From: a virus
Taxonomy: Duplodnaviria; Heunggongvirae; Uroviricota; Caudoviricetes
DNA: 9,181 nucleotides
Reading direction: 5' to 3' (one strand)
Virus record (IMG/VR): IMGVR_UViG_2548877011_000016
Part shown: positions 969-2,543 of the stretch, in pieces
How positions within the stretch are numbered: position 1 is the first letter of the stretch
Layout of the letters: the number at the start of each line of letters is the position of its first letter
The notes under the pieces: generated by a model
Told to the model about the DNA's origin: nothing
Seen by the model: the letters and a program-made list of their open reading frames with translations, nothing else
Databases searched by the model: none
Translations under genes and position numbers: made by a program

Positions 969-1895
969 TCAGCTTTTCGCCAGAACGGTGACGGCCTTAT
1001 CGAGTTTTTGCCATCCGCAATAGGTGATTGCCCTGAACGCTGTAGCGTCATTCTGGAAAAGGCTAACCGTCCCTGATTCGGTTTTTATTACCGCCTCATC
1101 AGTTGGGGTTATAACTGTGGCTTCAACGTTAATAATCAGCTTTTGAGCGTCTATCAGCATCATGCGATCCGCCTGTTCGCTCACAATTACCGGTATTCTC
1201 AAAAGCTCTATCTGCCAGAACTCAGCATCAGTAAGCTGTAAGGCGTTTTCTACGGGCAAGATTAGCGACGACGTGGCAAGCGTGTTACCGTTCGCTATGT
1301 GCTTTTTGAAAAGCTCTATGAAGTTTTCGGCCTCATCAGCACCATTAAGCACGCCCTCAGGGGATACGCCCGCCACCTCCTGGTCACTGGAAAGAAATTT
1401 TTTATCTATTTCTTTCACCGATTCCGATGTGATCAAGTCTCTGATCGCTGAATTGGTACCAGGGGTGCTAAATTTGATTAGCTCGTTATTCAGCATCACA
1501 ATAGCGCCAAGTTTGCACAGTTTTAGCGCACTTTCGTTTACTTCTCCCTCTTTGACAGGGATTTCTTCGGCTTCTTTAAGCCATTTACTACCCTTGCCTG
1601 ATATTGACTGCAATTTTGCGCCAAACGGAAGATTCAGCGCGCTGCTGATTAGCTTGCCTGGTACAGACTGCGAAAAAATATACTCGCCAAGCTCTCTTAC
1701 TATCGGCTCTGCCACCAGCGACGGCATATTATCCGTAGTCATTCCGGCAACAATGGATTTTTCAAGAAATTTCGATACTGCCGGATCATTTTTTTTCGTC
1801 ATTTCAATTGCGTCTGCATGGCTGAATTTACACGATGTAAGCACGCTGGCGGCGCGAACTGCCGACACGCCTTTCATGTTTTTAGAAATCATCAT
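969..1895 (-). CDS. HK97-fold major-capsid-like protein (308 aa, no delta domain)
   Basis: AGGAGG lies 6 nt upstream of tandem ATG codons at 1895 and 1892. The segment KLGAIVMLNNELIKFSTPGTNSAIRDLITSESVKEIDKKFLSSDQEVAGVSPEGVL and the C-terminal ...LFQNDATAFRAITYCGWQKLDKAVTVL match, by recall, the conserved core and C-terminal pattern of HK97-family major capsid proteins (compare HK97 gp5 ...MDDAPMLQSYINNRLMYGLALKEEGQLLNGDG... and ...ERLALAHYRPTAIIKG). Not verified by search. Confidence 0.55.
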   Translation of the reverse strand: MMISKNMKGVSAVRAASVLTSCKFSHADAIEMTKKNDPAVSKFLEKSIVAGMTTDNMPSLVAEPIVRELGEYIFSQSVPGKLISSALNLPFGAKLQSISGKGSKWLKEAEEIPVKEGEVNESALKLCKLGAIVMLNNELIKFSTPGTNSAIRDLITSESVKEIDKKFLSSDQEVAGVSPEGVLNGADEAENFIELFKKHIANGNTLATSSLILPVENALQLTDAEFWQIELLRIPVIVSEQADRMMLIDAQKLIINVEATVITPTDEAVIKTESGTVSLFQNDATAFRAITYCGWQKLDKAVTVLAKS

Positions 1896-2043
1896 CTTCT
1901 TCCTCCTGGTAACATGGGGTTAGGGTTTCGTGAAAATATGGCATCAGAACAGCGGCAGCCTGTAACCGTATTTCGGTTGGCTGCTGCTTGTCGTTCATGA
2001 TTTCCGTGAGTACATCAATAGGGTCTGTGATGTATTCGCTCAT
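1882..2043 (-). CDS. Small acidic protein (53 aa), not in the ORF track; overlaps the capsid-like gene start
   Basis: ATG at 2043 is preceded by GAGGT with an 8-nt spacer, directly after the TerS-like stop. Hand translation: MSEYITDPIDVLTEIMNDKQQPTEIRLQAAAVLMPYFHETLTPCYQEEEDDDF, stop TAA at 1882-1884. It overlaps the capsid-like ATG out of frame, an operon-style arrangement. Confidence 0.4.
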   Translation of the reverse strand: MSEYITDPIDVLTEIMNDKQQPTEIRLQAAAVLMPYFHETLTPCYQEEEDDDF

Positions 2044-2054
2044 AGTTCGCTACC

Positions 2055-2543
2055 TCAGTGTTTTAAGCCAGTTGGTGGCTTAGGGATGGGGAACCGATTT
2101 GAGGAGACATTAGCGGCATTGAGTTTTTTAACCTCTTTTTTCCCAATGCTGCCGATCTTGCGGTGGGTGAACTGGGCCAGCTTAAACGCGGCATCTAAAG
2201 CCAGTTTTGGATCTGTGTCCATGTTGTCAATCAGTATCCTGCCCATTGCTTTGATGGGGTCGGGTAGGCCGTTATCCATCATCTCAATGGTGTTAATTGA
2301 TGCCCGTTCCGGTGTAACTTTTTCGGTAACTTTCTTTGTAACTTTTTTCGGTTTTGTAACCTGAAAAGTTACATCAGAAGTTACAGCCTTAAGATACTTT
2401 TTCACCTCAGGATCATTGGATAGCTGCCAGCCTTTAACCCTTGCGGTCTTTTCGCTGTATCCCGCATGTATAGCGGCTTCCGTGGGATTTGCGCCCCTTG
2501 ATAACGCATCAGCAAACCGCTTTTTTTTGGTCGTTAATGCCAT
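2055..2543 (-). CDS. Phage small-terminase-like protein (TerS-like, possibly a packaging-redirecting protein), 162 aa
   Basis: ATG at 2543 is preceded by GAGG with an 8-nt spacer. N-terminus MALTTKKKRFADALSRGANPTEAAIHAGYSEKTARVKGWQLSNDPEVKKYL matches the small-terminase helix-turn-helix signature (LTxKQxxFxxEYxxxGNxTxAAIxAGYSxKTAxxxGxxLL). The track ORF 2055..2681 starts at an upstream GTG; that extension lacks an RBS and overlaps a GC-rich palindrome, so the ATG at 2543 is preferred. Confidence 0.65.
   Translation of the reverse strand: MALTTKKKRFADALSRGANPTEAAIHAGYSEKTARVKGWQLSNDPEVKKYLKAVTSDVTFQVTKPKKVTKKVTEKVTPERASINTIEMMDNGLPDPIKAMGRILIDNMDTDPKLALDAAFKLAQFTHRKIGSIGKKEVKKLNAANVSSNRFPIPKPPTGLKH
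2313..2387. repeat. Phased array of GTAAC/GTTAC pentamers with T-tract spacers inside the TerS-like gene (candidate pac or DNA-binding site)
   Basis: GTAAC at 2314, 2326, 2339 and 2356 and inverted GTTAC at 2368 and 2381 (plus strand), spaced 12-17 bp, each followed by a T-tract. In the protein this region encodes the KVT-repeat segment (TKPKKVTKKVTEKVT). Confidence 0.55.

Follow-up and report, generated by a model that had tools for sequence, protein, structure and literature searches.

We analysed a stretch of 9,181 nucleotides from the IMG/VR virus record IMGVR_UViG_2548877011_000016 (hereafter the window, meaning the whole stretch). The element in it is a classical Gram-negative phage-inducible chromosomal island (PICI) of the already catalogued EcCI11128/EcCI11368.1 type from Escherichia coli. 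The island ends with three genes on the minus strand, which encode a small terminase (TerS, 162 aa, positions 2055-2543), an acidic protein of 53 aa (1882-2043) and a homologue of phage capsid proteins (308 aa, 969-1895), the last island gene. We propose, with a probability of roughly 0.65, that these genes and the DNA in front of them form a packaging and capsid kit, by which the island would hijack lambdoid helper phages that carry an HNH endonuclease gene beside their terminase genes. The initial annotation of this stretch had described a satellite island with int, alpA, helicase and replication origin, a TerS-like protein, an HK97-fold capsid-like protein lacking a delta domain and an acidic open reading frame (ORF) between the two, with no portal, protease or large terminase (TerL); the profile searches, structure predictions, alignments and inspection of the flanks reported below bore out each of these features.

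By sequence comparison, the island TerS is a full-length homologue of the TerS of the predicted helper. It scored 41.5 bits against the Pfam family Terminase_2 (PF03592; cut-off 26.1), and its whole sequence matched phrog_641, "terminase small subunit", at 7e-44. The protein is laid out as an N-terminal helix-turn-helix domain (residues 5-55), a divergent linker, a helical hairpin (residues 96-130) and a basic tail. The modelled N-terminal domain superposes on the DNA-binding domain of SF6 G1P with a TM-score of 0.88 and a root-mean-square deviation of 1.5 Å. The model was predicted from the single sequence and is just moderate, with a predicted local distance difference test (pLDDT) score of 68 overall and ~81 for the hairpin, so that the fold of the hairpin is weakly supported. 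The island TerS is 47% identical to the TerS of phage Stx1_499, and the similarity covers the DNA-binding domain and the C-terminal third with the hairpin and the basic tail, the linkers being unrelated. It had been likened in the initial annotation to the TerS-like redirecting proteins of E. coli PICIs, a comparison that we had to give up. RppC was absent from the PDB sequence matches of the island TerS at E-values up to 1, and an Rpp-type redirecting protein was rejected on this ground. Rpp is a dimeric winged-helix protein that needs the TerS of phage lambda or 80 as its partner, whereas the island encodes a full-length Terminase_2 TerS.

Upstream of terS, a block of ~75-80 nt on the minus strand (2590-2668) is 79-81% identical to the spacer between the HNH and terS genes of helper-type prophages (L002 and L006). 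Except for two stretches of terS, the island has no further DNA similarity to the helper phages. The block was picked up in prophages at an E-value of 6e-7 when the cassette was searched against 28 Gb of complete E. coli genomes. Its 25-nt core, GCCCTGGACACCGCCCCCCGTCTCA (2613-2637), occurs once in the window, against 0 copies expected. Queried in IMG/VR as GCCCNGGACACCGCCCCCCNTCTCA, the core was found exactly in 43 contigs, and classification of every locus holding it gave an identical place and orientation in 52 of 52 loci. A search of species-representative genomes returned no exact match, the E. coli representative probably being without these elements.

The core stands in three settings. 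The islands have the order coiled-coil ORF, core, 95 nt, TerS, acidic 53-aa ORF and capsid homologue, with a TerS 43-47% identical to that of Stx1_499. In the helpers that we call type A, the order is HNH, core, 251 nt, TerS, TerL and a protease-capsid fusion, and the TerS is mostly 89-100% identical to that of Stx1_499 (79% in one truncated match). Type-B helpers keep the order HNH, core, TerS, TerL and fusion with 61 nt between core and terS; relative to Stx1_499 their HNH is 60-68%, TerS 46-48%, TerL 84-88% and fusion 73-76% identical, and their TerS is 30% identical to the island TerS. Past the shared block the three settings diverge fully: the island continues with two direct repeats of AAAAGTTACAC, type A with five GTTAAC palindromes at the corresponding position, and type B runs straight into terS. 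The core is therefore exact in two helper lineages and in the islands, across which TerS is 30-48% identical, and the TerL of both helper lineages is 84-99% identical to the Stx1_499 reference. Such an invariant core, next to interchangeable TerS proteins but similar TerL and HNH proteins, is the pattern expected of the part of cos that is cleaved. These comparisons point to the shared block as a cos cleavage site read by TerL and HNH, with TerS conferring a separate specificity. An HNH gene beside an HK97-type terminase is an established mark of cos packaging. The AAAAGTTACAC repeats (2566-2588, minus strand, read from the sequence), spaced 12 nt from start to start between the cos-like block and the start of terS, are candidate island-specific binding sites for TerS.

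The two helper lineages also differ between themselves (for example L033 and L042, among L029-L068), with TerS proteins 46-48% identical and core-terS spacers of 251 and 61 nt. This difference looks like a lambda/21-style exchange of packaging specificity inside one terminase family. Together with the islands, three TerS specificities were found alongside near-identical TerL and HNH.

The acidic 53-aa protein, with 13 Asp/Glu and 2 Lys/Arg residues, is related to TerS as well. The end of its ORF overlaps the start of the capsid gene by 14 nt. It matched phrog_641 at profile positions 89-126 (E 8e-7) and residues 94-126 of the type-B helper TerS with 39% identity over 33 ungapped residues (BLASTP E 8e-8), a score that 0 of 5000 shuffles reached. 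BLASTP against the island TerS and against the type-A helper TerS found nothing, and permissive local alignment with the other TerS types was marginal (13 of 2000 shuffles). The sequence is thus significantly homologous to the C-terminal helical hairpin of TerS, of which it is a free-standing homologue. The protein has no DNA-binding domain and ends in EEEDDDF in place of the basic, lysine-rich tail of TerS. Its relatives come from E. coli only, every one of them named "hypothetical", and the ORF is kept in every cassette variant. The protein may be a decoy or poison subunit for the TerS assemblies of the helper, or a competitor for the partner of the hairpin, which makes it a candidate packaging inhibitor derived from the TerS hairpin.

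The 308-aa protein resembles HK97-type capsid proteins in sequence and in predicted fold. It scored 28.8 bits against Pfam Phage_capsid (PF05065; gathering cut-off 24.2), 26.8 against TIGR01554, just under the cut-off of 27.5, and 1e-10 against PHROG families of major head proteins. RefSeq places the start at the second Met, giving 307 aa. The AlphaFold2 model (pLDDT 85.4; predicted TM-score 0.83) retrieved HK97-fold capsid proteins from the PDB by Foldseek with a probability of 1.00, E-values down to 1e-11 and TM-scores of ~0.5. The structural matches include Bxb1, 80alpha/SaPI1, HK97, T5 and the SaPIbov5 procapsid entry containing Ccm, the capsid homologue of that staphylococcal pathogenicity island (SaPI); the SaPIbov5 procapsid chains (7rwz; E 7.5e-9, 15% identity) matched no better than unrelated capsid proteins. 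Encapsulins have this fold in common, but an encapsulin was ruled out by the context of terS, cos-like block and satellite.

An exhaustive HMMER search of 1.84 billion representatives was needed to find 564 relatives of the capsid homologue, since a word-indexed protein search gave just 3 to 11. Closest among them is a group of 14 stand-alone proteins, 315-332 aa long and 30-51% identical. More distant relatives are protease-capsid fusions of 600-670 aa, in which residue ~290 aligns to residue ~8 of the island protein, and others are delta-plus-capsid proteins of ~450 aa, in which the same residue aligns to residues ~100-130. The fusion of phage Stx1_499 (645 aa), which consists of Peptidase_S78, an HK97-type delta region and Phage_capsid, is 23% identical to the island protein over residues 291-633. 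Judged by these alignments, the capsid homologue is without a delta domain and begins where the delta domains of its relatives end. The ORF list of the island contains no scaffold or protease gene for it either, and lacking all of these, the capsid homologue probably cannot build shells alone. In the predicted helper, the capsid subunit itself contains a protease and a delta domain in cis.

The genomic context of the stand-alone relatives of 315-332 aa was seen in two cases. In one (L003), the gene lies at an island-like edge beside chromosomal genes. The other is a satellite-like contig of 9.9 kb (L017, Logan DRR398677) that encodes a 162-aa TerS-like protein followed directly by a 326-aa delta-less capsid homologue (26% identity), together with an AlpA-like protein and a DUF3987 helicase; the contig has no gene for the 53-aa hairpin protein. 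This contig indicates that a delta-less capsid gene accompanies terS outside E. coli as well. For the distant relatives, searches of the family alignment against genome, metagenome and viral contigs gave only close E. coli copies or nothing, as did searches of viral contigs with three single distant homologues. The alignment of the family (A2, columns ~325-345) also revealed that the E. coli protein (at residues ~265-275) and its two closest relatives are without a loop of ~15-17 residues (consensus PxxxxxxPxxxx) that directly precedes the conserved VSLFQ motif in every more distant stand-alone homologue.

The likely helpers, as far as sequence relationships tell, are E. coli lambdoid prophages with the order HNH-TerS-TerL and a protease/capsid fusion, including many Stx1- and Stx2-converting phages. 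In a search of 50,697 phage records, the island TerS (47%) and the capsid homologue (23%) had their closest E. coli phage relatives in the same set of phages, namely Stx1a-, Stx2a- and Stx2c-converting phages and PPompW-type prophages. The head module of this set runs from the HNH endonuclease through TerS (Terminase_2), TerL, the prohead protease/capsid fusion and a small ORF to the portal, and the TerL is of the HK97 type (PF03354), comprising ATPase and nuclease. Modules of this kind were found in ~1,257 of 5,426 complete E. coli genomes (23%). The island and a helper-type prophage reside together in at least three genomes (NZ_CP074932.1, NZ_CP028432.1 and NC_013364.1, the last being the EcCI11128 reference strain).

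A variant island in E. coli 90-3040 (L069; NZ_CP027459.1, 3698412-3727904, island at ~6300-15100) carries the same cassette, with 98% identity for TerS, 91% for the acidic 53-aa protein and 97% for the capsid homologue; its integrase differs, and its primase is of the D5 type. The insertion interrupts terL of a type-A lambdoid prophage in the same orientation, with codons 1-92 of terL upstream of the island and codons 83-553 downstream, and prophage and island each keep their own copy of the core. A junction of the same type is also present in a metagenome contig. This insertion ties the cassette physically to the helper-type prophage family. Two further features of the locus are an internal stop in the prophage's own terS and an additional ~700 nt, relative to a metagenome contig (L021), that separate the capsid gene from the 3' fragment of terL.

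The cassette was found in 220 of the 5,426 complete E. coli genomes. Between its variants, the ratio of nonsynonymous to synonymous substitution rates (dN/dS, Nei-Gojobori) came to ~0.14 in the capsid gene, 0.08 in terS and 0.06-0.29 in the acidic 53-aa ORF. These low values indicate that all three genes are under purifying selection and are maintained. In a set of island loci (L007-L028), the cassette from the coiled-coil ORF through core, terS and acidic 53-aa ORF to the capsid gene is 93-100% conserved, and the neighbouring replication proteins range from identical down to ~62% over the N-terminal 122 residues only. A constant cassette beside varying replication modules suggests modular exchange between PICIs. 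Along with the cassette, the coiled-coil 53-aa protein is 98-100% conserved in every variant, including those with another replication module, and the 64-aa protein encoded before it is 87-100% conserved.

The sequence data show homologies, a shared site, purifying selection and a link, both physical and genomic, to one prophage family; from them we infer each biochemical step of the following course of hijacking. Helper induction would lead to excision of the island and to its replication from its own helicase and origin. The island copy of the helper's cos cleavage region would be what the conserved TerL and HNH recognise. The island TerS, with a helper-like DNA-binding domain, hairpin and tail, would load beside this site on island DNA and recruit the TerL and HNH of the helper, so that island concatemers would be cut and packaged in preference to phage DNA. 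The acidic hairpin protein would most likely disturb the helper TerS, either by joining its oligomers or by competing for its partner, with an effect like that of Ppi or Rpp. The delta-less capsid homologue, unable to supply scaffold or protease, would most likely co-assemble with the helper fusion as Ccm does, and this could alter the capsid size or spoil the helper heads. A Ccm-like change of capsid size is our best guess for its role by analogy.

Several points weigh against this proposal. Phages with headful (pac) packaging, SF6 and SPP1 among them, are the best-known source of Terminase_2 TerS proteins. The shared block may not be a cos site at all, and mapped cohesive ends for the helper-type phage group were not found in the literature that we consulted. 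As the gap between core and terS is only 61 nt in type B, the TerS binding sites need not sit where we have placed them for the island. The capsid homologue is distant from every phage capsid protein (at best 27% identity among the 50,697 records), its co-assembly with a 23%-identical helper capsid protein would be plausible only through the analogy with Ccm, and Ccm has a delta domain whereas the island protein is without one. In a study of Gram-negative PICIs (PMC6092414), deletion of the capsid homologue of another E. coli PICI, EcCICFT073, left its interference with lambda unrelieved. Co-residence of island and helper was shown for three genomes, in a species in which 23% of the complete genomes hold helper-type modules.

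The fate of the capsid is where hijacking by TerS, cos copy and hairpin protein could take different forms. It may proceed without any size redirection, ~five units of an island multimer (8.6-9.3 kb each) filling a full-size head of ~49 kb and the capsid homologue having another or a dispensable role. We regard this version as unlikely, yet keep it as a serious rival, because EcCICFT073 is packaged in phage-sized capsids (PMC6739421) and its deletion mutant interfered with lambda as before (PMC6092414); five island units would also amount to ~90% of a 49.2-kb head by simple arithmetic. A selected function of the capsid gene is nevertheless indicated by its dN/dS of 0.14 and its conservation across variants, a very distant satellite-like contig likewise pairs TerS-like and capsid-like genes, and PmCI172, a PICI with a capsid homologue, does make small capsids. 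At the other end is a complete three-part kit, composed of a cos copy with a full replacement TerS, a hairpin-only mini-TerS that enters the TerS rings of the helper or competes with them and stops helper packaging, and a capsid protein that forces small capsids (~T=3 or T=4), a combination that we consider doubtful in its full form. Volume scaling from a 49-kb T=7 head, again by arithmetic only, gives ~21 kb for T=4 (two island units) and ~14 kb for T=3 (one unit). If the full kit were real, the island would be the first cos satellite with its own full TerS, its small capsids would fit one or two island genomes as the capsid protein dilutes the helper fusion in the growing shell, and island carriage would lower the yield of Stx phages in enterohaemorrhagic E. 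coli lineages.

A different explanation, to which we give a poor chance, is that TerS directs headful (pac) packaging as in SaPI1 and SaPIbov1, and that the shared block, copied from the helper, regulates the late or packaging operon, for example as an antitermination or activator site. The membership of TerS in Terminase_2 and its best structural matches, which are SF6/SPP1-like pac TerS proteins, would agree with it, as would the promoter search: no sigma-70-like promoter was found on either strand of 600-3300, against 4.6 expected from shuffles, so that expression of the cassette probably needs an activator, from helper or island. However, the block always lies between HNH and terS in the helpers and is kept across differing TerS with similar TerL and HNH, the helper TerL belongs to the HK97 type (PF03354), and the HNH neighbour of such a terminase is a known mark of cos packaging. 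The island block also begins only 2 nt after a co-oriented ORF, an odd place for a promoter, though an antitermination site could lie there. It is very improbable, finally, that the cassette is functionless at present, a remnant left by the decay of a capsid-forming PICI (cf-PICI) or of a prophage head module. Such an origin is suggested by E. coli cf-PICIs, which encode HNH, TerS, TerL, portal, protease and capsid and have int, alpA and rep in common with classical PICIs. But the capsid gene, terS and the acidic 53-aa ORF are all under purifying selection, the gene boundaries are tight and overlapping, the architecture is constant in 220 genomes and on islands that differ in replication module and insertion site, no phage protein is closely related to the capsid homologue, and the SatelliteFinder trees part the capsid and terS genes of PICIs from those of cf-PICIs almost perfectly (PMC10085698).

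The proposed hijacking of HNH-type helpers can be compared with satellites of known mechanism. EcCICFT073 with its Rpp-type protein RppA (Fillol-Salom et al. 2019, Mol Cell; PMC6739421) is likewise an E. coli PICI with a sequence like the cosN of its helper and a different adjacent recognition region, encodes a protein with a TerS-like DNA-binding domain that redirects the helper terminase, and has a capsid homologue matched to the helper family. The differences lie in the helpers, which are lambda and 80 for EcCICFT073 and are predicted to be of the HNH/HK97 type for the island, and in the capsid homologue, which belongs to the lambda gpE family in EcCICFT073 and to the HK97 gp5 family, with no gpD-like gene, in the island. 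In contrast to EcCICFT073, the island also has terS before the capsid gene, the rarer order.

SaPIbov5 with Ccm (Carpena 2016, PMC5052747; Hawkins 2021, PMC8569155) is likewise a satellite with a capsid homologue, and its HNH-dependent cos helpers and copy of the helper cos correspond to those predicted for the island. Ccm is 24% identical to the phi12 capsid protein (PMC8569155), and the island homologue is 23% identical to the helper-type capsid. Ccm has been demonstrated to occupy the pentamers and force T=4 shells (PMC8569155); a comparable role of the island homologue would be hypothetical. SaPIbov5 is without a TerS of its own and Ccm has a cleaved delta domain of 87 residues, whereas the island has its own TerS and a capsid homologue with no delta domain; the capsid protein of the predicted helper is also fused to its protease, unlike that in the SaPIbov5 system. 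Because Ccm keeps a cleavable delta domain and SaPIbov5 lacks TerS, the island is not a copy of the SaPIbov5 system.

The pac-type SaPIs (SaPI1 and SaPIbov1) resemble the island in having a full TerS homologue of their own, which uses the helper TerL, as we propose for the island TerS. They also encode Ppi, a small protein that blocks the helper TerS, of which the acidic 53-aa protein of the island is a candidate counterpart, although the two are unrelated in sequence. These SaPIs use headful packaging and redirect the capsid size with CpmA and CpmB, in contrast to the cos packaging that we deduce for the island and to its capsid homologue. The embedded type of satellite, HE-PICI (PMC10111431), fits the variant of E. 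coli 90-3040, which interrupts a late gene (terL) of the presumptive helper in the same orientation. The window island differs in that it is not embedded, sits at a chromosomal tRNA-Pro gene and has another integrase than that variant. The cf-PICI EcCIEDL933 is likewise an E. coli satellite with packaging logic of the HNH/HK97 type. However, cf-PICIs encode TerL, portal, protease, head-tail connectors and their own capsids, and the island has none of these genes; an identity as cf-PICI was ruled out, as genes for TerL, portal, protease and connectors are absent from the island and its flanks. A P4-like satellite was also rejected, with no PHROG or Pfam match to Psu-Delta-Sid or alpha primase among the island proteins scanned.

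The initial annotation had further suggested that this combination of genes might be an uncharacterised variant. As a gene set it is not. EcCI11128 (O111:H- 11128, 9.3 kb) and EcCI11368.1 (O26:H11, 8.5 kb) are listed as PICIs at the yejM-luxR site (Fillol-Salom et al. 2018, ISME J, Table S1; PMC6092414). The window island has the same insertion site (the yejM-luxR interval with tRNA-Pro), size class (8.5-9.3 kb) and gene order, with no structural difference from either. The RefSeq record of strain 11128 shows this gene order at the listed coordinates, and it encodes a helicase and 53-aa proteins with the same sequences as in the strain most similar to the window. The PICI core of SatelliteFinder comprises integrase, regulator, primase-replicase, capsid-morphogenesis gene and small terminase, with terS before the capsid gene as the rarer order (PMC10085698), and 21 of 29 reference Gram-negative PICIs have capsid genes (PMC10111431). 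Measured against these, the gene set of the island is canonical and not unusual. In the accessible text of PMC6092414 the two reference islands are catalogued, and we found there no analysis of their packaging genes, cos site or helper; the literature that we searched contained no other paper naming this element or analysing its cassette. The island is thus a known PICI with an ordinary gene set, and what constitutes an uncharacterised variant is its packaging mechanism.

The island therefore adds nothing to the catalogue of satellites, and its value lies in a testable model for a PICI subtype that is apparently unstudied. The model names a helper family and a candidate cos site common to two phage lineages and the satellites. 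Shiga-toxin-converting phages of O157, O26, O111, O145 and O121 E. coli are among the predicted helpers, and a satellite competing for the terminase and capsids of Stx phages could affect the production and spread of toxin phages. The findings also support the general rule that Gram-negative PICIs take their capsid and DNA-recognition homologues from the family of the exploited helper, lambda-type in EcCICFT073 and HK97-type in the window island.

The boundaries of the island, which measures ~8.6-8.8 kb, were placed with the help of complete genomes. In these genomes it is flanked by core genes, yejO on one side and tRNA-Pro with yejM on the other. Neither the ORF list nor the RefSeq annotation of the complete genomes shows a portal, protease or TerL gene in the island or its flanks, or a tail, lysis or connector gene in the island. 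As the island is bounded by yejO and tRNA-Pro/yejM, nothing outside it could provide portal, protease or TerL. The PICI traits that we found, besides a size within the range of about 8-15 kb used for this class, are an int gene next to a specific att site, an AlpA-type regulator, unidirectional genes, a replicase with an origin, and a capsid gene with terS. The window opens with the 3' end of the autotransporter gene yejO (1-498), which RefSeq marks as a pseudogene with an internal stop or frameshift in island-bearing strains. The left end of the island (596-702) contains a degenerate copy of the tRNA-Pro 3' end (596-615) and a 26-nt repeat, CCGTATAACTAAACGTATAACTAAAA (677-702), which recurs 63 nt upstream of the int start codon. 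The repeat is made of CGTATAACTAAA units, inverted copies of which also lie just upstream of int (L001, 15258-15314), and it nearly matches the att core given for this PICI group in Table S1 of PMC6092414. The 26-nt repeats may instead be arm-type integrase sites, which leaves 596-615 and 677-702 as two candidate boundaries.

All annotated island genes are on the minus strand, except one small ORF mentioned below. The tyrosine integrase (7940-9181), identified by Pfam integrase domains, fills the right end of the window, and tRNA-Pro lies ~220 nt beyond it. The AlpA-like helix-turn-helix regulator (68 aa, 7237-7443) matched phrog_66 at 7.9e-7 and, weakly, Pfam Phage_AlpA (E 0.017, below the cut-off). 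It is followed by small ORFs and RefSeq-annotated fragments, a DUF4222 protein, and the RepA-type replicative helicase (3608-5008; AAA_25, PF13481, 2.6e-43; phrog_2850, 1.7e-258). Iterons of the CTCCCCAC type (3397-3609) lie directly downstream of the helicase gene, the position reported for PICI origins in PMC6092414. After an 81-aa ORF, a terminator-like hairpin followed by a T run (3125-3142, minus strand) separates the replication genes from the packaging cassette. The cassette begins with a 64-aa protein from the ORF list (2836-3030), which by eye looks like a ribbon-helix-helix protein, and a 53-aa protein predicted to form a coiled coil (2671-2832), whose ORF ends 2 nt from the cos-like block. 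Pfam and PHROG scans gave no family match for these two proteins. A spacer of 128 nt then leads to TerS, the acidic 53-aa ORF and the capsid homologue.

Some minor features of the islands are worth recording. The window is ~45 nt shorter than the corresponding stretch of the closest complete genome (9,181 against 9,226 nt). RefSeq names Ash-family and Icd-like fragments among the genes between the AlpA-like and DUF4222 genes, and at 5971-7222 two long minus-strand ORFs (219 and 221 aa) overlap truncated RefSeq pseudogenes (an Ash-family and a hypothetical fragment), so that this region looks decayed or mosaic. In two genomes with 97.6-98.7% identity to the cassette region (H98, NZ_CM142927.1; H100, NZ_AP042673.1), a homologue of "antitermination protein NusG" is annotated under the match to 969-2700 in place of one of the hypothetical proteins. 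The single small gene on the plus strand (6666-6857) belongs to the YlcI/YnfO family, homologues of which directly adjoin the HNH gene in helper-type prophages (L006, 6495-6719; L069, 4567-4767 and 8571-8753), and it could be a shared regulatory or helper-sensing element.

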